Position numbers and translations under genes: made by a program. DNA of 64,000 nucleotides from an uncultured Verrucomicrobiae bacterium (lineage in GTDB: Bacteria > Verrucomicrobiota > Verrucomicrobiia > Limisphaerales > JAHDYP01). Numbering within the stretch: the stretch's first letter is position 1; each line of letters opens with the position of its first letter. The notes below the pieces were generated by a model, which worked only from the letters and a program-made list of their open reading frames with translations, did no database searches and was not told the origin of the DNA. Shown piece after piece: positions 5,458 through 34,043 of the stretch. Location of the stretch: NCBI GenBank assembly GCA_963765535.1, contig CAVXWU010000004.1:593202-657201 (forward strand). The letters are read 5' to 3'.

Positions 5458-8400
5458 ATGGCTATTAACCTTTCCATTCTAGTGATCGAAAACAGCCCGG
5501 AACAATTCCAGCTGATCGATCAACAACTCGAACAAATCGCCCCCCCTGCCCGACCCCATCGCGTCACCACCCGTGACGAATTGGAAGCGGCCCTTGACCT
5601 GGGGGGCTGGGATGCCGTGGTGTCAAACTATGGCCTGCCCGACTTTGACTTCCCCCAGATTCTCAAGGCGATCCGATCGCATTATCCCGACTTGCCGCTG
5701 GTGCTCGTTTCGGCCCCCATCGGCGAAGAGAACCTGGTTGAATGGCTGAAGTCGGGCTTATCGGATTTTGTGCTTAAGGACCATCTGACCCGACTCGCGT
5801 TCGTCCTCGGTCGCACCCGGCGAGACGCCGCTCAGCGTCATGCCCGCGCCAGCGCGAGTGCGGAGCTCCGCGACTCCCGTATCGCCGCGCTCAACATGAT
5901 GGAGGATGCCGACGAAGCGAGGCGTCACGCGGAGGACGTCAGTGCCCGACTGCGACAGGAAATCGCCGGACATAAAGAAACGGTGCATGCGCTAAGGGAG
6001 CAAGAGCGCCAGATGACCACCCTTTTCAGCAACCTGCCCGGCATGGCGTATCGCTGCAGCAATGGCCCGCAGTGGACCATGGCGTTCGTGAGCGAAGGAT
6101 CGCGGGATTTGACCGGCTATTCTCCCGCCGACCTGGTGGAAAACAGCACGGTTGCCTATGGAAACCTGATTCATGCCGACGATCGGGAGGAGGTGTGGCG
6201 GCAGGTGCAGACCGCCCTGAAGCGGCGGCAACCGTTCCGCATCGGTTACCGGATCTCTACCGCCTGCGGCGAAGAACGCTGGGTGTGGGAACAAGGACGC
6301 GGGGTATTTGACGAGGCCGGGACATTGCTGGGATTGGAGGGATTTGTAACTGACGTCAGCGTCCAACGGCATGCCGAACTGGCATTGCAGCGGAGCCAGG
6401 CCCTGCTTTCCCAGGCGGGGCGGATGGCTCGACTCGGCGCCTGGGAGCTGGACGTCACGCATCTCGAGGCTTCCGATGCGAGCCCATTATGGTGGTCCGA
6501 GGAAGTCTTTCGAATCTTCGGCTATTCATCCAAAGAGGTGGAACCCAGCCGCCAACTCTTCTTCGAGCGGGTTCATCCGGAGGACCGAGGGCGGGTCATG
6601 CAAGCCGTCCAGCGGTCTCTGGACGAACGTCGACCTTACGAAATCGAACACCGCATCATCCGCCCCGACGGGACTGAACGAGTCGTCCTGGAACATGCGG
6701 TCACCGTGTTCGATGACCACGACGGTCCGCTCCGAATGATTGGCGCCGTGCAGGATATCACTGCCCGCAAGGCTGCCGAACAAGCCGTGCGTAACAGCGA
6801 AGCGCGGTACCGTGAGTTGGTGGAAAGCGCCAACAGCGCGATCCTCCGTTTCAAACGCGACGGAACGATTACCTTCTTCAATGAGTTTGCCCAGACCCTC
6901 TTCGGCTATCCGGCAGAGGAAGTTCTCGGCCGAAACGTGGACCTGCTTTTGCCGGAACACGAATCCGAAGACCACGATCTCAGCGGCTTGATCCGAGACA
7001 TCTTCAGTGATCCAGACCGCTTCGCCTTCAACATCAACGAAAACGTCTGCCGCGACGGCCGCCGTGTCTGGATGGCCTGGTCCAATAAGGCCATTCTGGA
7101 CCCCAAAGGCGAGGTCGCGGAAATCCTGGCGGTCGGTAGCGATATTACCGAACAACGGCGAGCGGAGGCAAAAGTCCGGCAGATGTCTGACCGGCTCCAA
7201 TTGGCCGCTCGCGCAGCCGTCGTCGGTGTTTGGGATTACGATTTGGTCCAGAATGAACTTGTGTGGGACGAGGCCATGTACCGCCTCTATGGCGTCTCCC
7301 GCAATGAGTTCGGTTGTGCATACGAGGCCTGGCAAACCTGTCTGCACCCCGAAGATCGCCACCGTACCCTCGAAGAGGTGGAACGAGCCCTCCGCGGCGA
7401 GCAGGAATTTGACACGGAGTTTCGCGTGGTCTGGCCGGACGGATCCATCCACTACATCAAAGCCACGGGTTTGGTCCAACGGGACGCCACGGGTCGGCCC
7501 GTGCGTATGCTGGGTACCAACTGGGACATTACCGAAAGTAAACGGGCGGCAGAGGCCCTCGCACAAAGGACTCGCCACGCATCGCTGGCGGCTGAGGTTG
7601 GTGCGGCGCTCGCCCGCAAAGCCAGCTTGCGCGATGTCCTTCAGGCATGCACCGAAGCGATGGTCCATCACCTGGATGCCGCGTTTGCCCGCATATGGAC
7701 GCTTAACCCGGAAGGAAATATCCTGGAGTTGCAGGCCAGCGCCGGGATGTACACCCACCTCGATGGGCCACATGGGAGGGTGACGATCGGCGATATGAAC
7801 ATCGGCCGCATCGCCGCGGAGAACCGGCCGCATCTCACCAATGACGTCGCCGGTGATCCCCGCATCGAAAACCCGGACTGGGCTCAGCGTGAAGGCATGG
7901 CGGCCTTCGCCGGGTACCCCCTCTGGGTCGAAGGCCAACTTCTCGGGGCGATGGCCCTCTTCACCCAACACCCGCTCTCAGATGCAGCCCTCGACGCCCT
8001 GGGCGCAACTGCCGACACCCTTGCCCTGGGAATCGAGCGGAAACGAATGGAAGAGGCACTCCGCGCGAGCGAGGAGCGGCACCGCATCCTGTTTGAAGAC
8101 TCCCGCGACGCCATCATGGTCGCTACGACTCCCAGCTTTAGATTTATTCGGGCAAATCCCGCGACATTTAAAATGTTCGGCGTAGCCAGCGAGGCCGTGT
8201 TCCAGAGTTTAAGCGCGGCGGAGCTCTCACCGGAATTTCAACCTGATGGTCGTTCTTCGCTTGAAGCGATCCGTGACATGATCGACTCGGCCCTGCGACA
8301 AGGCTCGCATTCGTTTGAATGGATGCATCGCCGCCTCACGGGCGAGCATTTTCCAGCCTCGGTCACCTTCACCCGAATGATACTGAGGGGCCAGACGGTG

Positions 8401-16875: not shown

Positions 16876-16963
16876 GTCGCATCGCGTCGTCCGCGAAGCG
16901 GAGCGCGGTTGTGTCCCGTCTGCGGGACCAGCCGCAGCAACGTCCGACGGTCGCATCACGGTT
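16876..16963 (+). repeat. Left-flank module of composite repeat, copy 1
   Basis: ..GGGTCGCATCGCGTCGTCCGCGAAGCGGAGCGCGGTTGTGTCCCGTCTGCGGGACCAGCCGCAGCAACGTCCGACGGTCGCATCACGGTT. It aligns with 32875..32978 of copy 2 apart from one ~14-nt deletion, a 1-nt indel and a few substitutions. Confidence 0.8.
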
Positions 16964-17685
16964 CGAGGACGAGGGAGGAGGACGAGGGACGAGCACGAGG
17001 GACGAGGACGAGCACGAGGACGAGCACGAGGACGAGCACGAGGGACGAGCACGAGGGACGAGCACGAGGGACGAGCACGAGGGACGAGCACGAGGGACGA
17101 GCACGAGGGACGAGCACGAGGGACGAGCACGAGGGACGAGCACGAGGGACGAGCACGAGGGACGAGCACGAGGGACGAGCACGAGGGACGAGCACGAGGG
17201 ACGAGCACGAGGGACGAGCACGAGGGACGAGCACGAGGGACGAGCACGAGGGACGAGCACGAGGGACGAGCACGAGGGACGAGCACGAGGGACGAGCACG
17301 AGGGACGAGGGACGAGGGACGAGCACGAGGGACGAGGACGAGCACGAGGGACGAGGACGAGCACGAGGGACGAGGACGAGCACGAGGGACGAGGACGAGC
17401 ACGAGGGACGAGGACGAGCACGAGGGACGAGGACGAGCACGAGGGACGAGGACGAGGCACGAGGGACGAGGACGAGCACGAGGACGAGCACGAGGGACGA
17501 GGACGAGCACGAGGGACGAGGACGAGCACGAGGGACGAGGACGAGCACGAGGGACGAGGACGAGCACGAGGGACGAGCACGAGGGACGAGCACGAGGGAC
17601 GAGCACGAGGGACGAGCACGAGGGACAGAGCACGAGGGACGAGCACGAGCACGAGGGACGAGGACGAGGACGAGGACGCACGCGC
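16964..17685 (+). repeat. T-free tandem array 1 (13-bp and 19-bp units built from GAGCAC / GAGGGAC / GAGGAC)
   Basis: The last T before the array is at 16963 and the next T is at 17686. Every base between them on the top strand is G, A or C. GGG recurs every 13 nt from 17042 to 17302, which gives 21 units. A 19-bp periodicity follows from 17321. Confidence 0.95.
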
Positions 17686-17692
17686 TGTTCGT

Positions 17693-17898
17693 GTGCGCGT
17701 AGCCGCAGTAATGTACCCCCCGTCACCTGAGATGGGCGCTTTCCTCTTTCGGGGAATTATTCTGCCCAATAATCATTCTGCCACTCCCCCGCCAACCCGG
17801 ATCGCTCACCCCGAAGTGGCAGGATGATGTCGGCAGAATGATGGGAAGCCTACCGTCTCGTTGCCTGGGAACATTCGACCGGCTCGAACCATTCGCGC
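17693..17898 (+). repeat. Right-flank module of composite repeat, copy 1 (contains four-box ATTCTGCC hairpin 17757..17841)
   Basis: GTGCGCGTAGCCGCAGTAATGTACCCCC...GGGCGCTTTCC.CTTTCGGGGAATTATTCTGCCCAATAATCATTCTGCCACTC...GAAGTGGCAGGATGAT.GTCGGCAGAATGAT.GGAAGCCTACCGTCTCGT.GCCTGGGAACATTCGA.CGGCTCG.ACCATTCGCG. It aligns with 33729..33933 at roughly nine positions in ten by eye. Confidence 0.85.
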
Positions 17899-17971
17899 GT
17901 TGCAGCAACAGCCGACGGTCGCTGCGCGTCGGGTTGCGACATTCTTGAATGCCCCGAACCGCGTGCGCGCG

Positions 17972-18028
17972 TTGCTGCGACTGGCGATTCGGGTCGCGCT
18001 CCAGCCAAGCTGCACGTCGTCCGCGTGC
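17972..18028 (+). repeat. Extra partial copy of the left-flank start segment at the 3' end of copy 1
   Basis: TTGCTGCGACTGGCGATTCGGGTCGCGCTCCAGCCAAGCTGCACGTCGTCCGCGTGC matches 32856..32912 (GCTGCTGCGACTGGCGCTTCGGGTCGCGCTCCAGCCAAGCTGCGCGTCGTCCGCGTGC) with 3 mismatches. Confidence 0.8.
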
Positions 18029-18403: not shown

Positions 18404-18629
18404 ACTTGATGTTTTCTGCCCAGACGAACCGGTTCTTTTGCCAGACTGTTCCCGAACATCGGGTCTAAAATCATCACTGAACTGAGTTCAACTGAGGATT
18501 CACCATGCCTTGAAAGAGACAAGCTATCGCGCAGGACGCGGGACAAACTGACAGGCCGGAGTGGGAAAGCAAGCCTTATCTTTGCCATTGGGAGTCTGCG
18601 ATTCATTGACATGCCCTTTCTCCGGGAGG

Positions 18630-21600
18630 ATGTTGCGACGCATGATTTCCCGGCGGTTGTTGCAATCTTTTCGTTCAGGTTGTCTCCTGGTTTCTCTCTT
18701 CCTCGCCGTTGGAGCGCTCCAGGGACAAGTCATTCTCAGTGAATTCATGGCGGACAATGAATCCACGCTGGCCGATGAGGATGGAACCTATTCCGATTGG
18801 ATTGAGGTTTACAACACCGGGGCCAGCGCGGTGGACCTCGCCGGCTGGGCGTTGACCGGAGATCCATTGCATCAGGCGCTATGGGGGTTTCCTTCCACGA
18901 ACTTGCCGCCCAAGGGTTTCCTTGTCGTTTTTGCATCAGGAAAAAACCGCGCGGTGGCGGGCGCGCCGCTGCACACCGATTTCAGTCTTAAGGCGAGCGG
19001 AGAATACCTGGCGCTGCTCGAACCGGGAGGAGGCGTCGCCACGGAATTTGCGCCGGCGTTTCCGTCACAATATCCCGACGTCTCTTACGGTGTGGTCCAG
19101 GAAGTCACCACGAATGCATTCGTGCCCTCCGGCGCGCCCGTGCGGGTTTGGATCCCCTCGAGCGCACAGGGTTCGACCTGGACGCAGCCCGCGTTTAACG
19201 ATGCCGGCTGGACAAGCGGATCGACCGGCGTGGGGTACGAGATCGCCGTTCCCGGTTTTGCCGCATTATGCTACGTGGCCAACGTAGGGGTCTGCAGCCT
19301 GGGCGCGGCGGAAGGCGTGGTCAACAATCCCGGGCAACAGTTCTCAGTCGCGGCCGAGAACGCCGCAGTGTTGAATTACCTGAACACGGCTGACTCGGCG
19401 CATTACGGCAACGACCGCGCGTTTCCGGGGCTGCCGATCGGTCCCGATCGCGATAATTTCGTGCTCGAGGCCACGGCCACGATCACCATCCCCGCGGCGG
19501 GCAACTGGACTTTCGGCGTCAACAGCGACGACGGTTTCTCGCTGGAGATCGGAAGCTTTTACATGTCCTACCCGGACCCGCGCGGTCCCGCGGACACCCT
19601 CCAAACGTTCAATTTTCCGGCGGCGGGCGACTATCCGCTGCGCCTGCTGTTCTACGAATGCGGCGGGGGTTCGGAAGTTGAATTGTTCGCCGCGGCCGGG
19701 AGTTACGCGGCATGGGACCCGACCCATTTTCATCTGGTGGGTGACATGGCGAATGGAGGATTGTCCGTTTTGTCTCCCGTGATCTCCGGTGGTGAGGGGA
19801 CGGCGAGTTATCGGCCGTTGCTCGCCACAGATGTGGAGTCCCCGATGCTCGGGGTGAACGCCTCGGCCTATCTGCGGCTACCCTTTACCGTGGCGGATCC
19901 GGCGGCGCTCGAGTCGCTCACGTTGCGGATGCGATACGACGATGGTTTTGTCGCCTATCTCAACGGACAGGAAGTTGCCCGTCGCAACGCGCCGGCCGCT
20001 CCTTTATGGAACTCGGCGGCAACTGCGGCTCATCCCAACGATCAGGCGCTGATTTTCGAGGATTTCAATCTGTCCGACCGGCTCAACCTGCTTCAGCCGG
20101 GAAACAACCTGCTGGCGATCCAGGGACTCAACCGTTCGGCCGCCGACACTGATTTCCTGATCATGCCGGAGCTCCTGGAGCTCCAAATCACCGACGCCGA
20201 CACGCAGTACTTCGCCAAAGGATCGCCGGGGGCGCCTAATGGCGCCGGATTTGTGGCCTTTGTGGCGGATACGAAATTCGACCATGACCGCGGTTTTTAC
20301 GACGCTCCTTTTCAACTCTCGATCACGACGGCCACGCCGGGAGCGACCATCGTCTACACGACCGACGGTTCGGTGCCGTCGCTGACCCATGGCACGGTCG
20401 TCAGCGGTCCGATACCGATCAGCGCCACCACCGTCATTCGGGCGTCGGCGTTCAAGGCGGGTTTCGCACCATCCGGAGTGGATACCCAAACCTATCTCTT
20501 CACCGCCGATATCATTCATCAGTCACCCACGGGCCAGCCCCCCCCCGGTTGGCCGGCAAGTTGGGGCGCGAACGTGGTGGATTACGGCATGGACCCGGAT
20601 GTGGTGAACGCTCCGGCCTATGCCGGCGAAATCGAGGACGACCTGAAATCGATTCCGACGTTTTCGATCGTGACCGAGTCCGGCAACCTGTTCGATCCGG
20701 CTACGGGCATTTACGCCAACGCCAGCCAGGATGGCCGGGACTGGGAACGTCCGGCCTCGGTCGAGCTGATTTATCCAGACGGCACTCCCGGTTTTCAAGT
20801 CAATGCCGGCCTTCGGATTCGGGGCGGTTACAGCCGGAGTTCAAACAATCCGAAACACGCCTTTCGACTTTTTTTCCGCCAGGAATACGGGGCGTCGAAG
20901 TTGGATTATCCGATGTTTGAGCATCAGGGCGGCACGGAAACCTTCGACGCCTTCGACTTGCGAACATTTCAGAATTACTCCTGGAGTTTCGAAGGCGATT
21001 ACCGGTTCATCGGCCTGCGCGACCAGTTCTCGCGCGATGCGCAATTGGCCCTCGGCCAACCCGGAGAACGGGGCGACTTCTATCACCTTTACATCAACGG
21101 GCAGTATTGGGGGATCTTCAACACCGCCGAGCGGCCGGAGGCCTCTTTCGGCGCCAGTTATTTCGGAGGGGACAAAGATGATTACGATGTCATCAAGGTG
21201 GATACCGGCGCGGGCTACACCATCTTCGCGACCGATGGGAACATGGATGCCTGGACGCGTCTTTGGCAGGCCGCTACCAATGGGTTCGCCACGGACGCCG
21301 CATATTTTAAAGTGCAGGGGAGAAACACCGACGGCACGCCTAACCCGGCGTTCGAGAATCTACTGGATGTGGACAACCTGATCGACTACATGCTGGTGAT
21401 CTTTTTCACGGGCAACATCGACGCGCCGATCTCGGCCTTCATCGGCAACACGAATCCGAACAACATGTACGCCGTTCGGAATCGCACAGGGCTCTATGGC
21501 GGCTTTCGATTCCTGGCGCACGACTCCGAACACACTCTCCTGCACGAATCGTCGCTTGGGAACAACGACGAACTCCATCGCGATCGCACGGGGCCGTTTG

Positions 21601-24600
21601 CCGCGGGCGATCCCACGCAACAAGGAGCGGCGGGCGCACTGGCCCGGAGCAATCCGCAGTATTTCTTTACCCGGTTGACCGCCAACGCCGAGTTTCGCCT
21701 GCGCGTGGCCGATCACATTCGCAAGGCGTTCTTCGATGGCGGCGTGTTGAGCCCCGAAGGTTGCCGTGCCCTTTTCACGGCGCGCAGCAATGAAGTCTAC
21801 CATGCGATCGCGACCGAGTCGGCCCGCTGGGGCGACTCCAAACGTTCCACCCCCCGCACCCGCAATGAAGACTGGGCTCTCGAAATGAGCCGGGTCTATG
21901 GAGATTATTTCAACCAACGGACCGGGATTGTTCTCGGGCAATTAACAGCCAAAGGACTCTACCCGAACGTCGACGCCCCATCCTTGAATCCCAATGGCGG
22001 CCTCGTGCCGCCCGGATCCACCGTGACGATGGCTGCGCCGGCCGGCACGATCTACTACACCCTCGATGGATCGGATCCGCGGCTGCGCGGTGGCGGGGTG
22101 GCTGCGACCGCGCAGATCTACTCCAGCCCATTGACCTTGTCCCAGAGCGTTCGGATCAAGGCCCGCGCGCTGAGTGGCGGCACCTGGAGCGCGCTGACCG
22201 ACGCGACGATTTACCTCAACCGGGATTTCACAGACCTCCTGGTTACGGAGATCATGTACCATCCTCAGGCGGCGGCGACGTTTGACAGCGAGGCTTTGGA
22301 GTTCCTCGAATTGAAGAACGTCGCGAGCACGAACCTCGAACTCAGCGGTGTGCATTTCACCGATGGGATCCAGTACTCCTTCCCACTCGGCATGCTCCTT
22401 GGTCCGGGCCAGTTCGCGGTGCTGGTTAGTGATCCGGTCGCCTTTGCCAGCCGATACCCCGGGGTGCGCGTCGATGGCGTGTTCACCAATCACCTCTCCA
22501 ACAGCGGCGAACGAGTGATCCTGGCCCACGCCAACGATGTTCCGATCTTTTCCGTGGCATACGAGGCCGCCCTTCCCTGGCCGGTCACGGCCGATGGAAC
22601 GGGATTCTCGCTCGTGCCCCTGAATCCGAATCTTAATCCGGACCCGAGTAGTGCATTGAATTGGCGGAGCAGCGCCTCGATCGGCGGGTCGCCGGGCGCG
22701 GACGATCCGCCCTCGTTCCTTCCCCGGATCCTGGTGAACGAAGCGCTTACGCACACGGACCTGCCGCAACTGGATTCCATCGAGCTCTACAATCCTAATC
22801 TGACGAATGTGGACGTCGGTCATTGGTTCCTGACCGACCAGCGGAATCTCCCCGGCAAGTATGCATTTCCTTCGCCCACCATCATCCCGGCCGGTGGCTT
22901 TTTGGTTCTGACCGAAAACGACTGGAACCCCGATCCGCTTTCGACCAACGGTTTCCGGCTCAATTCTCATGGCGAAGAAATCTATCTCTACTCAGCCGAC
23001 GCCATCGGCCAACTTACCGGTTACAGCGACGGGTTCGCCTTCGGTGCCGCGCAGAACGGGGTGACTTTCGGGCGTTACCTCAATAGCGTGGGCGAAATCC
23101 TCTATCCCGCGCAGACCGCCAACACCCTGGGTGCGCCCAACGCCGGGCCGCGGGTGGGACCGGTAGTCATCAACGAAATCCGTTATCATCCCGCGCCGGG
23201 AGACGAGGAGTTTGTGGAGCTGAAAAACATCACCAACGCGCCCGTGAAGCTTTACGATCCCAATTTTCCCACCAACACGTGGCGCGTCGAAGGATTGGGC
23301 TACCGATTCCCGGAGAACGTCGAGATATCCGCCAATGGACTGCTCCTGCTCGTGGCGGCCGATCCGGCAACGTTTCGGACGAAGTATGGTGTCCCGGCGG
23401 CCGTTCCCATTCTGGGCCCGGTCCCGGGCACGTTGCAGGACAGCGGTGAGTCTCTGGCCCTCCAACGACCCGATACGCCGGACCTGGACACCAATACCGG
23501 CGCGATCTTCATTCCGCAGATCGACGTGGACGTCGTGCGATACAATGACAAGTCCCCCTGGCCCACCAACGCCGATGGCTTCGGTCCGTCCCTCGAACGG
23601 CTCGACGCCCGCGCCTATGGGAACGACCCGGTCAACTGGCGGGCCAGTCCGGGTCCTGCGTCACCCGGCCAAGAAAACACGGGCAACCGTCTGCCGCTGG
23701 TGGAGGCCGGCGCGGATGTGTCACTGACCGCCGCGACGTTTCCGTTGAACGTTCCGCTGGCCGGTTCCGCCCAGGACGACGGTCTCCCGAATCCGCCGGG
23801 CGCATTGACATTGACCTGGAGCCAGGACACCGGCCCGGGCCTCGTCGCGTTCAGCAATGTACACTTGTCGAATCCTTCGGCGAGCTTCCCTGGCGTGGGC
23901 ACGTATGGCCTGCGGCTTACGGCCGACGACGGTGCCCTGCAGGTAAGCGACGTGCTCAGCGTGACGATTGACCGGCTCCCTTCAAATGTGCCGATTGTGA
24001 GCAAAGGCTCGGCCTGGAAATACCTCGACAACGGATCGGACCAGGGATCGGCCTGGACATCGCCTACATTCAACGATGCAAGCTGGCCATCCGGGTCGGC
24101 CCCGCTCGGATACGGAGACGCCGACGGTGTGTTGCCCGTTACGCTGGTGGGCTATGGTCCCGACGCCAACAACAAGTACCTCACCACCTATTTCCGCCAG
24201 ACGTTCAATGTGTCTAATCCGGCCGATGTCACGGCCCTGACACTGAGCGTGCAGCGGGATGACGGAGTTGTGGTTTATCTCAATGGCGCTGCCGTCTTCG
24301 TCGACAACATGCCGGCCGGACCGATCGGATACCTGACCTCCGCCGTCACCGCCGTGGGCGGCGCGGATGAAACAACATTCTATATCCAGTCCATTGATCC
24401 GGCCCTGCTGCGCCAGGGGGCGAATGTCGTGGCCGCTGAAATCCATCAGGCCGGCGGGAACAGCAGCGATATCATCTTCGATCTCGAACTTATCGGACTG
24501 GGATATTCCGCTAACCAGGCGCCCACAGCCAATGCGGGCCCGGACCAGGCCGTGACCCTCCCTGCCACGGCAGAGCTTCACGGTACCGCGAGTGATGATG

Positions 24601-25049
24601 GCCTGCCGATCCCGCCCGGCCTGCTCACCTTCACCTGGTCGAAAGTCAGTGGCCCGGGATCCGTCATTTTTTCAAACCCCTATGCGCTCGAAACCAGCGC
24701 GAGTTTCTCGGCATCGGGTACGTATGTGCTCCGCCTGACGGCTGCCGACGGCGTATTCTCCGTGAACGACGATCTGACGGTTACAGTGAGCGGGCAGACG
24801 CAGTCGCCGCCAGAGTTCGAGTCCGTTGCCTGGGATGCATCCCAACCTCCGGTGTTGCGCCTGACATTCACCGCCGTCGCCGGGCGAACCTATACTGTCC
24901 AATACCGGGATACGCTGGAGCCGGGTTTATGGTCGAAACTGGCGGACATCCCTGGCCAGGTTCAATCCGGTCCGGTGGAGGTGCAGGACTCGAACGTGTC
25001 GGAGAACACCACGCGCTTTTATCGAATTGTCACTCCTCAACAACCATAG
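18630..25049 (+). CDS. Giant secreted Lamin-tail-domain (LTD) / PA14 / CotH-family protein (2139 aa)
   Basis: Track ORF 18561..25049. I moved the start to ATG 18630, which has GGGAGG just upstream and a signal-peptide-like MLRRMISRRLLQSFRSGCLLVSLFLAVGALQGQ. LTD modules include VILSEFMADNES..WIEVYNTGASAVDLAGWAL, LLVTEIMYHPQ, ILVNEALTHTD and VVINEIRYHPAPGDEEFVELKN. A PA14-like block is GNWTFGVNSDDGFSLEIG..YPLRLLFYECGGGSEVELF. The CotH core is HAFRLFFRQEYGASKLDYPMF..FYHLYINGQYWGIFNTAERPE. Two Ig/PKD-like modules are present (..ANAGPDQAVTLP..). A C-terminal RFYR module is also present. Confidence 0.85.
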   Translation: MLRRMISRRLLQSFRSGCLLVSLFLAVGALQGQVILSEFMADNESTLADEDGTYSDWIEVYNTGASAVDLAGWALTGDPLHQALWGFPSTNLPPKGFLVVFASGKNRAVAGAPLHTDFSLKASGEYLALLEPGGGVATEFAPAFPSQYPDVSYGVVQEVTTNAFVPSGAPVRVWIPSSAQGSTWTQPAFNDAGWTSGSTGVGYEIAVPGFAALCYVANVGVCSLGAAEGVVNNPGQQFSVAAENAAVLNYLNTADSAHYGNDRAFPGLPIGPDRDNFVLEATATITIPAAGNWTFGVNSDDGFSLEIGSFYMSYPDPRGPADTLQTFNFPAAGDYPLRLLFYECGGGSEVELFAAAGSYAAWDPTHFHLVGDMANGGLSVLSPVISGGEGTASYRPLLATDVESPMLGVNASAYLRLPFTVADPAALESLTLRMRYDDGFVAYLNGQEVARRNAPAAPLWNSAATAAHPNDQALIFEDFNLSDRLNLLQPGNNLLAIQGLNRSAADTDFLIMPELLELQITDADTQYFAKGSPGAPNGAGFVAFVADTKFDHDRGFYDAPFQLSITTATPGATIVYTTDGSVPSLTHGTVVSGPIPISATTVIRASAFKAGFAPSGVDTQTYLFTADIIHQSPTGQPPPGWPASWGANVVDYGMDPDVVNAPAYAGEIEDDLKSIPTFSIVTESGNLFDPATGIYANASQDGRDWERPASVELIYPDGTPGFQVNAGLRIRGGYSRSSNNPKHAFRLFFRQEYGASKLDYPMFEHQGGTETFDAFDLRTFQNYSWSFEGDYRFIGLRDQFSRDAQLALGQPGERGDFYHLYINGQYWGIFNTAERPEASFGASYFGGDKDDYDVIKVDTGAGYTIFATDGNMDAWTRLWQAATNGFATDAAYFKVQGRNTDGTPNPAFENLLDVDNLIDYMLVIFFTGNIDAPISAFIGNTNPNNMYAVRNRTGLYGGFRFLAHDSEHTLLHESSLGNNDELHRDRTGPFAAGDPTQQGAAGALARSNPQYFFTRLTANAEFRLRVADHIRKAFFDGGVLSPEGCRALFTARSNEVYHAIATESARWGDSKRSTPRTRNEDWALEMSRVYGDYFNQRTGIVLGQLTAKGLYPNVDAPSLNPNGGLVPPGSTVTMAAPAGTIYYTLDGSDPRLRGGGVAATAQIYSSPLTLSQSVRIKARALSGGTWSALTDATIYLNRDFTDLLVTEIMYHPQAAATFDSEALEFLELKNVASTNLELSGVHFTDGIQYSFPLGMLLGPGQFAVLVSDPVAFASRYPGVRVDGVFTNHLSNSGERVILAHANDVPIFSVAYEAALPWPVTADGTGFSLVPLNPNLNPDPSSALNWRSSASIGGSPGADDPPSFLPRILVNEALTHTDLPQLDSIELYNPNLTNVDVGHWFLTDQRNLPGKYAFPSPTIIPAGGFLVLTENDWNPDPLSTNGFRLNSHGEEIYLYSADAIGQLTGYSDGFAFGAAQNGVTFGRYLNSVGEILYPAQTANTLGAPNAGPRVGPVVINEIRYHPAPGDEEFVELKNITNAPVKLYDPNFPTNTWRVEGLGYRFPENVEISANGLLLLVAADPATFRTKYGVPAAVPILGPVPGTLQDSGESLALQRPDTPDLDTNTGAIFIPQIDVDVVRYNDKSPWPTNADGFGPSLERLDARAYGNDPVNWRASPGPASPGQENTGNRLPLVEAGADVSLTAATFPLNVPLAGSAQDDGLPNPPGALTLTWSQDTGPGLVAFSNVHLSNPSASFPGVGTYGLRLTADDGALQVSDVLSVTIDRLPSNVPIVSKGSAWKYLDNGSDQGSAWTSPTFNDASWPSGSAPLGYGDADGVLPVTLVGYGPDANNKYLTTYFRQTFNVSNPADVTALTLSVQRDDGVVVYLNGAAVFVDNMPAGPIGYLTSAVTAVGGADETTFYIQSIDPALLRQGANVVAAEIHQAGGNSSDIIFDLELIGLGYSANQAPTANAGPDQAVTLPATAELHGTASDDGLPIPPGLLTFTWSKVSGPGSVIFSNPYALETSASFSASGTYVLRLTAADGVFSVNDDLTVTVSGQTQSPPEFESVAWDASQPPVLRLTFTAVAGRTYTVQYRDTLEPGLWSKLADIPGQVQSGPVEVQDSNVSENTTRFYRIVTPQQP

Positions 25050-25172
25050 CATGCGAATCCCGCGGTCCACTCATTTGATGGCCTGGCGAAGACCGGGAAT
25101 TTGATCATCATTCATCGGGTCTTTTGGCCCCCCAACCTATTAAATCTGGAGTATGCCAATGCCATCCCTCAT

Positions 25173-28100
25173 ATGCCCATTTTGACTGCAGTCCGATCGC
25201 GCTTCGTCTTGCTGGTTCTGATGCTCTTTGTCTTGGTCTCGGTCCGCGCCCAAAACGTTCTGGTGACCGAGATCATGGTCCATCCACCGGGCACCAATCT
25301 CCTCGAACAGTGGTTTGAACTCCAAAATCGCGGCCCGGCCGCTGTGGATCTTTCCGGTTGGCGAGTGACTCGCGGGGTCGACTATCTCTTTCCCAGCAAT
25401 ACTGTCCTCGCCGCGGGCGGCTACCTCGTGGTGGCCGCGGACCGGCAGACCTTCAGCGGGTTGCACCCGACGGTGACGAATTTCGTTGGCGGCTGGGAGA
25501 GCACGATCGGTCATGCGCTCGAGCTCACCGACCGATCAAACCGCGTGGTGCATGCCGTCGAGTTCTACGACCAGGGGGATTGGGCGGTCCGGCAAATGGG
25601 TCCGCCGCATTTCAACCACACCGGCTGGGAATGGCATGCCGAATTCGATGGACTGGGAGCCTCGCTCGAATTGATCAACCCGGCCTTGCCCGATGGCTAC
25701 GCCCACAATTGGGGTAGCAGCACGGTGATGGGCGGCACCCCCGGACGCCCCAACTCCATCGCCTCCTCGAACAACGCACCGTTAATCGCCGATGTGCATC
25801 ATCGTCCCGTGATCCCACAACCGAGCGATCCCGTCACCGTGACCGCCCGGGTGGTGGACGAGTTGTCCGTCGGCCTCGTGGTTTCTTTGCATTGGCGTGT
25901 GGATGGCGCGGCCAGTTTCAATGTCATCGCCATGGCGGATGACGGCGCGCACGGCGACGGCACGTCGGGCGACGGTCTGTTTGGCGCCATTCTCCCGGCG
26001 CAACCGGATCTGACCGTGGTCGAGTTTTATCTGCAGGCGCAAGACCAGGGAGGCAACCTGAGGACTTACCCCGTCTTCATCCCCCCGACCAATTCGACGC
26101 GCACGGCCAATCTGCTTTACCAGGTGGACAGCGGCGCTTACGCGGGCACCCAGCCGGTCTATCGGATCATCATGCGCGGAGTGGAGCGGGCAGAGCTCTT
26201 CGACCTCGGCCGCCAGTTCCCGGACGCCGACAGCGACGCCCAGATGAACGCGACCTGGATTTCCTCAGACGGCGTGGTGAGTGGCGGGTCGACCACCCAG
26301 ATCCGTTACAACTGCGGCGTGCGCAACCGCGGGCACGGCACGCGCGTCGCTAATCCGAACAACTACCACGTGAACATCCCGTCCGATCGCCTTTGGAAAG
26401 GCCAGGCCGGAATTAACCTCAACGCCCACTATGCTTATTCGCAGGTCCTGGGCAGCGCCGTCTTTCGCCGGCTGGGCGTGCCGATGGCCGATTCCCGCGC
26501 CGTGCAAGTGCGCGTCAATGGGATCGATCTCATGGCTTCGGTCGGCGGCGACTCCTTCGGTTCCTACGCCGCCAACGAACAATACAACAAGGATTTCGTC
26601 CAACGCTCCTGGCCGATCGATCCCGGCGGCAATGCGTATCGCGGTATCCGGGGCCCAACCGAGACCGGACCGCAAATCGAAGCGGATCTCACCTGGCACG
26701 GGCCGGACTTCTTCGTCAGCGGGTCCTACACGAACGCCTATTTCAAACAAAACAACTTTGTCCAAAACGATTACTCCGATCTCCTGGAACTCCTCGGTGT
26801 GCTCAACGAGATCCCCGGTTATTCGAGCTCGGCCGCCTATGTGACCGACGTCAACCGCGTGATCGATGTCGAGGCCTGGATGCGGTACATGGCCATCAAC
26901 ACTCTCCTGGCCAACGGCGAAACCTGCCTGGCCAATGGGGTGGGAGACGACTACGCCCTCTATCGCGGGACGCTCGACACCCGCTTTGAAGTGCTCCCTT
27001 ACGATCTGGATACCGTGATGGGGCGGGGCCTGACCCCCACCAGCCCGCGCAACGGACTCTGGCGCATGACCAACTTGCCGGTCATGGACCGGTTCATGAA
27101 GACGCCCGAGTTCGCCCCTGTCTATTACCGCCAACTCAAGACGCTCGCCGACACGGCATTTTCCACGGCGCAGATGGATCCGCTGCTTGATCAACTGTTT
27201 CAGGGCTACGTGCCGCAGGAGACGATTGACACGATGAAGGCCTTCAATGCGAGCCATGTGGCTTACGTGCTCTCCCAGATCCCAAACACTCTGGTCGTCA
27301 GCAACAACCTCCCGATTCTCAACGGCTATCCCCACACCACTGTTCCCATCATTGCCTTGACCGGCGCCGCCAATGCCTTGAACACCCGCACAGTCCTCGT
27401 GGGCGGTGGCGCGGCCACCTATTCCGCCTGGGAGGGTACGTGGTCGATCAACGGAATCGTTCTATATCCCGGCATCAATCGACTCCTGGTTCAGGCCCTC
27501 GATGCCGACGGTCAAGAAGTGGGCCGCGCCACCGATGACGTGTGGTATGACGACGGTGCTGCCCAGTCCGCGGGCGGGACTCTCCAAACGGACACCACCT
27601 GGACGGCAGCGGCCGGGCCGTTCGACATCACCTCCACCCTCACCGTCGCCGCCGGCGTCACGCTCACACTCGAACCCGGCCTTACAGTTTATCTCGGGCC
27701 GGGCGTCAACCTCGTGGTCGCCAATGGCGGACGGCTCCTCGCCGAGGGCACTGAGACCGCGCCCATTCGATTCACCAGGCTCCCCGGCGCCACCACCGCG
27801 TGGGGCGGAATCACGATCAATGGGGGGATCGGTTCGCCCGAGACCCGCATTACCCACGCCCATCTGGAGTTCAACGGTTCGACGGCCATCCACTCCTCGG
27901 GCGGCACAGTATTCCTGGACCATCTCACGTTTGGTTCGACCGACCACCAATACATTTCACTCGACGGTTCCTCTTTTGTGGTCAGCCATAGTGATTTCCC
28001 AACCCCCACGGCGGGTTTTGAACTTCTCCATGGCACCGGCGGGATCAAGGCCGGCGGATACGGCATCTTTTACCGGAACTTTGTTGGTGCCCCCAACGGC

Positions 28101-31100
28101 TACAACGACGCGATCGACTTCACCGGGGGCAATCGCCCGGGACAACCTCTCGTCCATTTCCTCGAAAACGTGTTTGTCGGGAGCGGCGACGATCTGCTCG
28201 ATTTGGACGGCACGGACGCCTGGGTGGAAGGCAATATCTTCATGCATTGCCACAAGAATGGATCGCCGGATTCGTCCAGTGCCGTGAGCGGCGGCGACGA
28301 CGGCAACGCGACTTCCGAGATCACCATCGTGGGCAACTTGTTTTATGATTGCGATCACGCGGCCACGGCCAAGCAGGGCAATTTTTATACGCTGCTCAAC
28401 AACACGATCGTCCATCAAATACACGAGGGCGGCACCGACACGGCCGGAGCGCTCATGAATTTTGCGGATGCCGGCACCACCGAAGGCGCGGGGGCCTATC
28501 TCGAAGGCAATATCGTGGTGGATGCCGAGGCCCTCGTCCGCGACCAGAACGCCGCTATTGTCACGTTTACCAATAACCTCCTGCCGTTCCCATGGTCCGG
28601 ACCCGGGGGGGCCAATTCCACCGCCGATCCGCGACTGAAGTATATTCCGCAACTCGCGGAAACCACCCAGTTCAGCAGTTGGGAAGAAGCTCAGGTGCTG
28701 CGCGATTGGTTCAGCCTGATGCCCGGGTCGCCTGCCATCGGCACGGGACCGAATCATCTGGATAAAGGTGGAGTTGTGCCGATGGGCGCCTCGGTCAGTG
28801 GCGAACCGTCCGGCACGAACAACCTGACCAGCGCCACACTCGAGGTAGGCTTTAACCGCGCGGGCAGCGGAATTCCCGTCGCCGGGTTCCCCGAGGGTTC
28901 CGGCTATGTTGCCTACCGCTACCGTCTGGACGGGGCCGCGTGGAGTACCGAACGGGACATTCATATGCCTATCAGTCTCGTCAATCTCTCCAGCGGCCCG
29001 CATCGCGTCGAAGTCTCAGGTAAACGCGACACGGGCCCTTTCCAGGACGACCCGGTGTTTGGCGATGCGGCATTAGTCAGCACTTCGCGAACCTGGACAG
29101 TCGATCCCGGCGCCGTTCCTTCCAATCTCCCAACCGTGCGCTTGAACGAAGTGCTGGCGTCGAATCGATCCGTGCTCACCAATGGCGCCGCGACGCCCGA
29201 CATCGTCGAGCTTTTCAATTTCGGCAGCGCATCGGTCGACCTGTCCGGAATGGGGCTCACCGATAACGCGGATTTGCCCTACAAATTCACCTTCGCCGCA
29301 GGCACTCAGCTCGCCGGCGGCGCGTTCCTGGTTCTATATGGCGACAACGATTTCACCGCGCCCGGCGTTCACCTCGGATTCTCGATTAAAGCCTCGGGCG
29401 ATAATGTCTTGCTCCACGCCGCCGCGGCGAAAGGCGGTCAACCCCTGGACCAAGTCGTGTTCGGCTTGCAGATCGCCGATTATTCCATCGGACGTGTGCC
29501 CGACGGCACCTGGACGCTCTGCGAACCCACCTTCGGTTCTCCCAACGTGACCGCCGGCCTCGGGCGCTACTGGGACCTGAAGATCAATGAGTGGCTCGCC
29601 GACGCCCAGTTCGCGGCCAACAACGATTTTGTCGAACTCTACAACCCGGAACCTCAGCCGGTCCCGCTCGGTGGATTATACCTGTCCGACGCGGCCGGCG
29701 CGCCCGACCGGCATCCGATCGCACCGCTGAGCTTCATCTCCGGCGCCGGCTACACCCCGTTCATTGCTGATAGCCAGCCGAACCAGGGCGCGGACCACTT
29801 GAATTTCAAGCTGTCGCCGGACGTGGGGCTACTGCTCCTCTCGGCGCCCGATCTGACTTTGATTGACGCCATTAACTACGGCCCGCAACAGACCGATGTG
29901 TCGCAGGGTCGCAGCCCGGACGGAAGTGAAACGCTTGCGGATTTCACGCAACCTTCCGACGGTGGACCCAATCCGGGCCTGGGCGGGGTCATCTCGGTGA
30001 CCAATGTCACTCAGACCATCGAGCCGCTGCTCGAGGTCACAACATCCGCGTGGCGATTTGATTCTTCGGGGATCGACTATGGGACGGGCTGGCGTCTCCC
30101 GGGTTTCGACGACTCCGGTTGGAACAGTGGTTTCGGCCTGTTCGGCCGCGAAACCACGCCGCAGGTCTATCCTTATCCCTTCCAGACCGCCATCCCGGCG
30201 CCGAGCCAGTCGGGCGGGCACATCACGGTATACTACCGAACTCACTTTTCCTGGACCGAAGCCCTGGCCGAGTTCCAATTGATCGCCACGAATTACGTCG
30301 ATGACGGGGCGGTCTTTTACCTCAACGGGGTCGAGGTGGGCCGGCTCCGCGTCTCAGCCGACCCGGTGCTTTATGCGAGCACGGCCTCCAACCAGGACAA
30401 CGAGGGCGCGCCCGAGCGATTAGTCTTTCCCACGAACAGCCTCGTTCGAGGTGACAACGTAATTGGAGCCGAAGTCCACCAGGCCAACAGCGGGAGCAGT
30501 GACGACGTGTTCGGCGTGTCGCTCGCGGCGATCCAATTCACCACAAACATCGTGACCCAGACCTTTGGAGTGCCGGTGCTGCTCAATGAGGTGCTTGCTC
30601 GGAACCAGACTCTTACGAATCACCTGGGCCATACTGCCGACTACGTCGAGCTGTTTAATCCTTCCACCAACACCGTGGACCTCTCCGGGCTGAGCCTGAG
30701 CACCGACCCCAACGATTCCCGCCGCTGGGTCTTCCCCGCTAATCGCAGTCTCGCGCCTTCGGCCTACACGGTGATCTACCTGGACGACGCCGCGCCCGCC
30801 TCACCCACCAACACCGGCTTTGCCCTGGGTGCCAACGGCGACGTGCTTTATTTCTTTAACCGTCCGCTGGGCGGCGGAGCTCTGGTCGATTCCATCCGGT
30901 TTGGCCGGCAAACGCCGGACTTCTCGATCGGGCGCACACCCGATGCCGCCGGTCATTGGACACTCAATCTTCCCACTCCCGGCGGTCCGAACAGCTCGGC
31001 TGGCCTGGCGAACATTTCCGCCCTCCGGATCAATGAATGGATGGCCGATCCCTCGAAGGGCAGCGATTGGCTCGAGCTCGCGAATTCCGCCGGCCAACCC

Positions 31101-32855: not shown

Positions 32856-32978
32856 GCTGCTGCGACTGGCGCTTCGGGTCGCGCTCCAGCCAAGCTGCGC
32901 GTCGTCCGCGTGCGGAGCGCGGCTGTGTTCCGTCTGCGGGACCAGCCGCAGCAACACCCCGACGGTCGCATCACGGTT
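32856..32978 (+). repeat. Left-flank module of composite repeat, copy 2
   Basis: It starts 34 nt after the stop of the 2549-aa gene. See copy 1 (16876..16963 and 17972..18028) for the aligned sequence. Confidence 0.85.
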
Positions 32979-33721
32979 CGAGGACGAGCACGAGGAGGAG
33001 GACGAGCACGAGGAGGAGGACGAGCACGAGGAGGAGGACGAGCACGAGGAGGAGGACGAGCACGAGGAGGAGGACGAGCACGAGGAGGAGGACGAGCACG
33101 AGGAGGAGGACGAGCACGAGGAGGAGGACGAGCACGAGGAGGAGGACGAGCACGAGGAGGAGGACGAGCACGAGGAGGAGGACGAGCACGAGGAGGAGGA
33201 CGAGCACGAGGAGGAGGACGAGCACGAGGAGGAGGACGAGCACGAGGAGGAGGACGAGCACGAGGAGGAGGACGAGCACGAGGAGGAGGACGAGCACGAG
33301 GAGGAGGACGAGCACGAGGAGGAGGACGAGCACGAGGAGGAGGACGAGCACGAGGAGGAGGACGAGCACGAGGAGGAGGACGAGCACGAGGAGGAGGACG
33401 AGCACGAGGAGGAGGACGAGCACGAGGAGGAGAACGAGCACGAGGAGGAGAACGAGCACGAGGAGGAGAACGAGCACGAGGAGGAGGACGAGCACGAGGA
33501 GGAGGACGAGCACGAGGAGGAGAACGAGCACGAGGAGGAGGACGAGCACGAGGAGGAGGACGAGCACGAGGAGGAGAACGAGCACGAGGAGGAGAACGAG
33601 CACGAGGAGGAGAACGAGCACGAGGAGGAGGACGAGCACGAGGAGGAGAACGAGCACGAGGAGGAGAACGAGCACGAGGAGGAGAACGAGCACGAGGAGG
33701 AGGACGAGCACGAGGAGGAGC
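32979..33721 (+). repeat. T-free tandem array 2: 41 x 18-bp units GACGAGCACGAGGAGGAG (10 units with AAC instead of GAC)
   Basis: The last T before the array is at 32978 and the next T is at 33722. Units start at 32983 + 18k for k = 0..40. Units 0-24 begin GAC. The AAC variants are units 25, 26, 27, 30, 33, 34, 35, 37, 38 and 39 (hand count). Confidence 0.95.
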
Positions 33722-33728
33722 TCTTCGA

Positions 33729-33933
33729 GTGCGCGTAGCCGCAGTAATGTACCCCCGTCGCCCGACATGGGCGCTTTCCGCTTTCGGGGAATTATTCTGC
33801 CCAATAATCATTCTGCCACTCACCCGCTAACCCGGATCGCTCACCCCGAAGTGGCAGGATGATTGTCGGCAGAATGATTGGAAGCCTACCGTCTCGTCGC
33901 CTGGGAACATTCGAGCGGCTCGGACCATTCGCG
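33729..33933 (+). repeat. Right-flank module of composite repeat, copy 2 (four-box hairpin 33792..33877)
   Basis: It aligns with 17693..17898. A degenerate copy of the left-flank start follows at 33934..33975 (GCTGCTGCGGCTGGCGCTTCGCGCACAGTCGCGCTCC). Confidence 0.85.
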
Positions 33934-34043
33934 TGCTGCTGCGGCTGGCGCTTCGCGCACAGTCGCGCTCCGGCAATCGCCGGAGCAGCTTGACAAACGG
34001 CAGCAGCAGCAGAGCATAGCCTCGAGTTTATCTGCTCCGTCCT

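Follow-up and report, generated by a model that had tools for sequence, protein, structure and literature searches.

A four-box hairpin from a Verrucomicrobiae bacterium belongs to an apparently undescribed intergenic repeat family of Planctomycetota, Verrucomicrobiota and neighbouring phyla

Extragenic palindromic repeats have been much studied in Proteobacteria. REP sequences are species- or genus-specific; the DUS of Neisseria, the Correia elements and the TRIT motif of Mycobacterium are each limited to one genus or family. DUS are also found singly throughout coding DNA, and Correia elements are marked by TA duplications and by terminal repeats of a defined kind; TRIT is reportedly a terminator motif, described in the RNIE paper. 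The BOX elements of pneumococci, again of a single genus, have sequences different from those reported here and are composed of modules of 45–59 nt as against boxes of 11 nt. For the PVC group, no four-box repeat of the kind analysed below was found described in the literature searched; published papers on GTAG/CGTC-tagged REP and on HUH endonucleases treat other elements. The family is apparently undescribed, and it is widespread between genes in Planctomycetota, Verrucomicrobiota and neighbouring phyla.

The window, the whole stretch of 64,000 nucleotides analysed from an uncultured Verrucomicrobiae bacterium (contig CAVXWU010000004.1), holds two copies of the hairpin (Table 1), whose full 11-nt boxes were located by allowing two mismatches to the 11-mer ATCATTCTGCC. 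A first-pass annotation had given coordinates for the boxes of both copies, all of which were correct: the 8-mer ATTCTGCC occurs in copy 1 at 17759 and 17775 (+) and at 17832 (-, as GGCAGAAT), and in copy 2 at 33794 and 33810 (+) and at 33868 (-), with GGCAGGAT at 17818 and 33853. The same annotation had proposed an imperfect hairpin of ~85 nt, with a protein-binding palindrome of four half-sites as the alternative, and both copies did fold in two parts. RNA folding of the + strand gave -40.7 kcal/mol for copy 1 (z -3.1) and -48.5 kcal/mol for copy 2 (z -6.1), and DNA folding gave -19.9 (z -3.2) and -23.0 (z -5.0) respectively. The outer helix has 11 bp including one U-G and the inner helix 14 bp including one G-U, as had been anticipated in the claim that the inner arms pair save for a single G-U; the outermost 3 nt on each side of the terminal region of copy 1 (ACT/AGT) lengthen the inner helix. 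Between the helices lies an internal loop, 5x3 in copy 1, which a 1-nt indel between the right-hand boxes, correctly noted beforehand, makes smaller in copy 2; further differences between the copies are two loop substitutions and a third immediately past the outer box. The minus strand of copy 1 prefers a shifted pairing register in both RNA and DNA folding, which is expected since each arm has two identical boxes.

Table 1. Coordinates of the hairpins, of the repeat units that hold them in the window, and of two motifs recorded at other loci
Feature	Position	Strand	Remark
Four-box hairpin copy 1, whole element	17756..17842	.	Boxes and fold; 87 bases
Box 1 (outer left) ATTATTCTGCC	17756..17766	+	Partner is box 4, U-G at N position
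Box 2 (inner left) ATCATTCTGCC	17772..17782	+	Partner is box 3
Variable terminal region, copy 1	17783..17817	.	35 nt, between boxes 2 and 3
Box 3 (inner right) GGCAGGATGAT (ATCATCCTGCC on minus strand)	17818..17828	-	
Box 4 (outer right) GGCAGAATGAT	17832..17842	-	
Four-box hairpin copy 2	33791..33878	.	Boxes 33791-33801, 33807-33817, 33853-33863, 33868-33878
Conserved left flank, unit 1	16880..16965	.	Matches 32898-32980
T-free tandem array, unit 1	16964..17675	+	Period 13/19; context, outside hairpin
Conserved right flank, unit 1, holding hairpin	17685..17905	.	~94% identical to 33724-33933
T-free tandem array, unit 2	32980..33720	+	Period 18; context, outside hairpin
Conserved right flank, unit 2	33724..33933	.	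~94% identical to 17685-17905
TTG[TC]GGCTCCGCC motif			Loci L020, L022, L029, L034, L038, L074, L078, L085, L087, L090, L097, L103, L105
Acido-Lenti-1 (RF01687)	L001 1-46; L097 4603-4648; L103 7894-7939		

The 8-mer ATTCTGCC is found eight times in the window compared with 1.9 expected, a count reached in none of 100 shuffles; six of the eight fall within the two hairpins, so that the within-window excess amounts to one duplicated event. Box matches elsewhere in the window are isolated, and one of these, at 10516, lies in an ORF where it reads D-I-I-L-P. Searches of the window against Rfam gave no matches at the gathering threshold and, at E<=1, nothing on the hairpin; across 22 loci from other genomes, gathering and permissive searches likewise gave nothing for the hairpin, with eight loci having sub-threshold miRNA-like matches only.

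Both hairpins sit in a duplicated unit of ~1 kb that consists of a left flank, a T-free tandem array and a right flank, and the hairpin was copied passively along with this unit. The right flank is conserved over a larger stretch than had been stated. With the copies 94% identical inside a duplicated unit, the window alone cannot tell conservation from recent duplication. The arrays, of ~0.7 kb each, are built from the units CGAGCACGAGGGA and GAGGACGAGCACGAGGAG and have no T on the + strand; their open frames result from this absence, as a T-free strand cannot hold stop codons. A protein-coding reading was rejected on this ground, on the period of 13, which is not a multiple of 3, and on the lack of an ATG, GTG or TTG start in the acidic frame of copy 2, and the two arrays are probably non-coding. 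Sigma-70-like matches directed into the array were seen on the minus strand at 17784-17756 and 33819-33791. The two units are separated by adjacent giant ORFs (18561-25049 and 25101-32822; 2162 and 2573 aa). Exactly two copies of a 26-nt motif, CTGCGACTGGCGNTTCGGGTCGCGCT, are present, one downstream of unit 1 (17975-18000) and one upstream of unit 2 (32860-32885), and a related sequence also closes unit 2 (~33915-33965); direct repeats may bound the ~1-kb units.

Copy 1 is flanked by the gene for pyruvate phosphate dikinase (PPDK) and by a convergent gene for an RRM protein, absent from the records, which has its own terminator-like site at 18069-18048. Copy 2 is flanked by one of the giant ORFs and by a gene whose product has a prepilin-type N-terminal motif, both on the + strand. 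No tRNA genes were found within the window. The window PPDK is 95% identical to metagenome proteins, the named matches being from Verrucomicrobiae or Verrucomicrobiia. PPDK relatives at 86-95% identity are followed by different DNA, with no hairpin, and close relatives (95%) lack the array as well. One of the 95% relatives (L111, 13850-13990) keeps a left-flank homologue, 21 nt of which match exactly, but neither array nor hairpin; the array region evolves fast. A metagenome scan with the left arm of the window element yielded a single match, from an unrelated low-GC organism and with the box order reversed (<< >>), and no further copies of the window's unit.

As the two window copies are in themselves weak evidence, the element was followed in public genomes by running the pattern ATTCTGCC-N4-14-ATYCTGCC-N20-50-GGCAGRAT over 185,579 species genomes, which gave at least 110 matching stretches. 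A locus was counted as canonical if a stretch of up to 130 nt contained three or more full 11-mer boxes, with both orientations represented; at least 66 such loci were present among the 110 matches listed. By the taxon in each genome record, 61 of the 66 canonical loci listed belong to Planctomycetota, Verrucomicrobiota, Kiritimatiellales or the 'PVC group', and the other five to KSB1 (two), Zhuqueibacterota, Chitinophagaceae and a short contig binned as Blastochloridaceae. The earlier statement that GGCAGAATGAT-type motifs recur in intergenic repeats of PVC genomes was therefore borne out, and confinement to the two window copies, the outcome that had been named as refuting the hairpin, was not observed. 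The other 44 listed matches (~40%) were degenerate PVC copies, low-complexity repeats and coding-sequence or chance matches, so a rough expectation of ~6 random-sequence matches is too low for real genomes. In 2.9 million viral contigs the same pattern gave two matches, neither of which had an AT-N-AT prefix or a fourth box; a plasmid collection gave no match.

Three metagenome-assembled genomes (MAGs) have at least 11 loci each, and so display the many extragenic copies per genome that are expected of REP; two of the three hold mostly near-identical units. Most copies in the Verrucomicrobiia MAG JADGRT and the Planctomyces MAG JAYVSP lie within near-identical units that run on past the hairpin by 90-130 nt in either direction and show neither terminal inverted repeats nor target duplications; copies in the Pirellulaceae MAG JADYZV have shorter flanks in common, and the Planctomycetia MAGs JBJXEX and JAYVQJ carry a bare hairpin of ~55-60 nt at unrelated loci. 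Stieleria and Rhodopirellula share elements at orthologous sites, some individual boxes having decayed. The window hairpin is a member of a large, mostly PVC family that is multi-copy and intergenic, often inside longer genome-specific repeat units.

The building block of the family is AT-N-ATTCTGCC, usually arranged as a direct pair of boxes with a period of 14-16 nt, then a loop that varies, then an inverted pair. Among 299 distinct clustered boxes (from 325 instances), 87% have A at -3 and 87% have T at -2; no base is fixed at -1 (C 44%, G 31%, T 18%) and the bases upstream are C-rich. Both of these A and T preferences, the fourth box and the spacers of 1-5 nt lie outside what the scan pattern demanded. 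The pattern did demand three boxes, so that ascertainment accounts in part for the invariant 8-mer core. The canonical layout, taken from 39 strict elements of 19 genomes, has a spacer of 1-5 nt (usually 3-5) and a loop of 8-49 nt that in the elements of other genomes is unrelated in sequence; the absence of a preferred spacing, which was to count against the element, is not what was found. Other layouts were also encountered, at frequencies that are not comparable given the bias of the scan pattern toward >> <<: the order is reversed (<< >>) in L094 and L118, and boxes overlap head-to-head as a perfect 17-bp palindrome, GGCAGAAT-S-ATTCTGCC, in L037, L067 and L069, as arrays of 21-nt period in L037 (3074-3259) and L067 (5236-5456) and singly in L069. 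The palindrome arrays of L037 and L067 adjoin genes for Chitinophagaceae and Verrucomicrobiae proteins that have a common C-terminal domain (BLASTP E 8e-13) and no Pfam match.

Covariation was analysed with one element from each of 19 genomes, which are related to one another, using the boxes and their immediate neighbours. Pairing is maintained beyond the invariant boxes in this set of related genomes: four box-flanking positions are complementary in 13-15 of the 19, with CG, GC, AU and UA all used, and the covariation score was 0.186 compared with 0.099 +/- 0.013 in shuffles, none of 500 reaching 0.186, contrary to the prior condition that covariation be absent if the hairpin were spurious. 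Sliding the partners by 1-3 columns reduced the score to 0.03-0.08, and 50 cells were changed on both sides as against 28.9 in shuffles (0/500). By comparison the N position pairs in 10-14 of the 19 genomes, not significantly above shuffles, and the middle of the spacer is near chance; a separate script gave the same outcome for pairing beside the boxes, with the N position and spacer middle not significant. The folded form therefore consists of two helices of ~13 bp, a small internal loop and a variable terminal cap. This unevenness of pairing argues against a recent inverted duplication, as neutral decay should erode all positions alike, although arm-to-arm complementarity could derive in part from DNA-level template switching rather than selection. 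Since the N position is not fixed and frequently fails to pair, the box sequence is kept independently of pairing, which points to sequence-specific recognition besides folding. A test of G-U against A-C mismatches for the strand that folds was mixed, with few informative elements: six of the nine with at least two transition mismatches mix both types on one strand. Taken together, these results support the overall interpretation of the first-pass annotation.

Copies are intergenic, and canonical elements are faced by the 3' ends of 57 genes and the 5' ends of 42; by crude gene calls, the intergenic contexts of all matches listed are 31 tandem, 13 convergent and 11 divergent. Pfam analysis of 99 flanking ORFs, together with clustering of 317 ORFs within 2.5 kb, identified no common function and no trans-acting factor, the neighbouring families being the usual expanded ones of PVC genomes (sulfatases, DUF1501, DUF1559, ECF sigma factors, ABC/efflux). 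No RAYT (Y1 HUH) gene was found among the 99 flanking ORFs in 8-kb windows, and one IS200-type TnpA gene lies 386 nt from an element.

Several established classes were considered. A canonical intrinsic terminator does not fit, since a T-run (>=6 T in 10 nt) was present in only 5 of 78 outward flanks, which are G-rich; the window copies run on into GGGAAGCC and TGGAAGCC. Membership of a regulon of operators was dismissed on the 8-49 nt distance between arms and on the functionally unrelated flanking genes. REP sequences are defined by an unpaired 5' GTAG or CGTC tetranucleotide at the foot of the palindrome (PMC3733652), and the outward flanks here read GGGG, GTGG or GGA, with no tag. An integron attC site was likewise rejected, as the boxes read ATNATTCTGCC/GGCAGAATNAT and each arm has them as direct repeats, and no cassette-like arrays were seen. 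With regard to MITEs, the arms could serve as terminal inverted repeats; no target-site duplication is visible.

Hairpins of related construction but with other boxes were also observed. Arms of tandem CCTCGTCC/GGACGAGG boxes form hairpins in other Verrucomicrobiota (L023 602-668, L044 218-301, L088 4278-4359), where they are the short unit of the window's arrays in inverted form. In a close relative of the window organism (L113, 7908-7972) the four boxes of a hairpin have another sequence, ATCTTTTACC, with spacers ACCC/CGGG, and at 8152-8193 the same locus has three direct ATGATTCTGTC boxes with a 15-nt period. No tandem-box hairpins were found in ~0.3 Mb of shuffled controls. A second short motif, TTG[TC]GGCTCCGCC (loci in Table 1), is common to repeat units of a Verrucomicrobiia MAG and of Planctomycetota MAGs and forms a small stem, in which T:A in the one corresponds to C:G in the other. 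Rfam Acido-Lenti-1 scored above gathering at ~130-270 nt from four-box units in one Verrucomicrobiia MAG.

The reading that we favour, and to which we would give an even chance, is that the hairpin is a REP/BIME-like extragenic palindromic repeat that acts as a folded single strand, with its box kept by a putative sequence-specific factor. Two direct boxes, the variable loop and two inverted boxes fold within one strand, whose active form may be RNA, single-stranded DNA or a cruciform; a conserved factor may recognise the box duplexes, on the folded or the duplex element, and so keep the box identical across phyla; and any effect on neighbouring genes would presumably be structural, as a barrier to exonucleases or polymerase or an insulator between transcription units. 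So conceived, the element would act neither as a canonical U-tract terminator nor as a gene-specific operator. An RNA element, acting as a terminator independent of a U-tract or as a 3'-end stabiliser of the upstream transcript, is possible but unlikely. Its long bipartite stem would halt RNA polymerase or 3'-5' exonucleases, or be cleaved by RNase III, and would suit the strong RNA fold, the compensatory changes in the stems, the G-U nature of both window mismatches on the + strand (that of the upstream genes), the convergent genes around copy 1 and the slight preponderance of gene 3' ends. T-runs are rare in the G-rich flanks, however, there is no clear depletion of any context among divergent, convergent and tandem gene pairs, the mixing of G-U with A-C in six of nine informative elements favours neither strand consistently, and the RRM gene downstream of copy 1 already has a terminator-like site; nor does plain structure explain an invariant 10-nt sequence across phyla. 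The specificity of one transposase would account for that same identity if the hairpin were a MITE or foldback element, its arm a terminal inverted repeat with two transposase-binding direct repeats (IR-DR), mobilised in trans by an enzyme spread over PVC and FCB bacteria through horizontal transfer. Short near-identical hairpins at unrelated loci of one genome, genome-specific loop variants and ~11 of the 66 canonical loci listed in which the element is no more than 300 nt from a contig end, where multi-copy repeats that break assemblies are expected to lie, are all in keeping with mobility. We nevertheless regard it as quite unlikely, because target-site duplications are not visible, the units of two MAGs run 90-130 nt past the arms and have ends of their own without terminal inverted repeats, no transposase lies between inverted double boxes in ~0.8 Mb of loci, the only such genes nearby are the IS200-like one (386 nt off) and an IS91-like fragment, and plasmids and viral contigs have no matches beyond two chance viral ones.

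The head-to-head palindromes of L037, L067 and L069 raise the prospect of a cluster of duplex-DNA operators, in which the boxes are half-sites of the 17-bp palindrome GGCAGAAT-N-ATTCTGCC and are bound by a dimeric regulator of adjacent genes; the free N position is as at the centre of a dimer site, and the central AAT-N-ATT resembles the 7-1-7 boxes of the Fur family. Such an arrangement is very unlikely, as arm distances of 8-49 nt are ill-suited to a fixed protein complex, protein binding does not need complementarity at variable positions beside the boxes, the flanking genes have no common function, and gene 3' ends are as frequent beside elements as 5' ends. Absence of function is highly improbable. 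A recently duplicated, fast-evolving intergenic repeat whose palindromy arose by replication slippage and template switching would account for the 94% identity of the whole flank, which makes box identity between the window copies uninformative, for the lack of array and hairpin at this locus in close relatives (95% PPDK identity) and for tandem-box hairpins of unrelated boxes in the same genomes; it is largely refuted because 19 or more genomes, from several phyla, share the 11-mer box, its period and the inverted layout and show compensatory changes. Scarcely tenable is a pair of back-to-back, outward sigma-70-type promoters, with T(T)GGCA of the inner box as -35 and AATSAT of the outer box as -10. 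The left arm of each copy does contain GTGGCA-17-AATAAT on the minus strand, and the box period of 15-16 nt would give a spacer of 16-17 nt, yet divergent gene pairs are not enriched, the remainder of the box is conserved where it should vary freely, and the right arm in the window fits the consensus poorly.

What is surprising about the REP/BIME-like repeat that we favour is that 10 specified bases, the period and the folded layout are alike in several phyla and over a wide range of GC content. This cross-phylum identity implies a putative conserved reader, and its identification would account for a common trait of planctomycete and verrucomicrobial intergenic DNA. In a bolder form of the proposal, which we hold tentatively and consider unlikely, the AT-N-ATTCTGCC hairpin would be the substrate of a putative protein passed on by vertical descent throughout the PVC and FCB superphyla. 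This protein might be a domesticated transposase, or a structure-specific nuclease or recombinase able to read a tandem pair of box duplexes on the folded single strand. If true, this would amount to a REPIN-RAYT-like or attC-like system at superphylum scale, of whose repeat ecosystem the GGACGAGG hairpins, TTGYGGCTCCGCC and Acido-Lenti-1 would also be part. At a practical level, four-box repeats break assemblies, yield spurious small ORFs and could mark PVC contigs.

The four-box element can finally be set against the systems it most resembles. Like the attC sites of integrons, it has four boxes, two per arm, with an unpaired central spacer and a variable terminal structure, and its layout can be likened to that of attC in that attC function needs the folded single strand and is indifferent to loop sequence; unlike attC, it has no RYYYAAC/GTTRRRY core, its boxes are direct rather than inverted within each arm, it forms no cassette arrays and no integron integrase was seen near it. 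With inverted pairs of Neisseria DUS, Correia elements and Mycobacterium TRIT it has in common that it is an intergenic hairpin of conserved stem sequence in many copies, but its boxes are not scattered singly through coding DNA as DUS are. Pneumococcal BOX elements are similar in being modular repeats (boxA, boxB, boxC) in variable combinations that are predicted to fold. The element also resembles REP, BIME and REPIN sequences (E. coli PU, Pseudomonas REPINs), which are also short multi-copy extragenic palindromes able to form hairpins, combine with other short motifs into mosaics and persist at orthologous sites. In contrast to REP, the four-box element has no GTAG/CGTC tag, each arm is made of two direct 11-nt boxes and not of one imperfect palindrome, no RAYT was seen beside its copies, and its box is identical in several phyla; we know of no precedent among REP/REPIN systems for the identity of a 10-nt box across phyla. 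As the tag is lacking and no RAYT was seen in the flanking 8-kb windows, we place the element outside the REP family and describe it as REP/BIME-like in behaviour.
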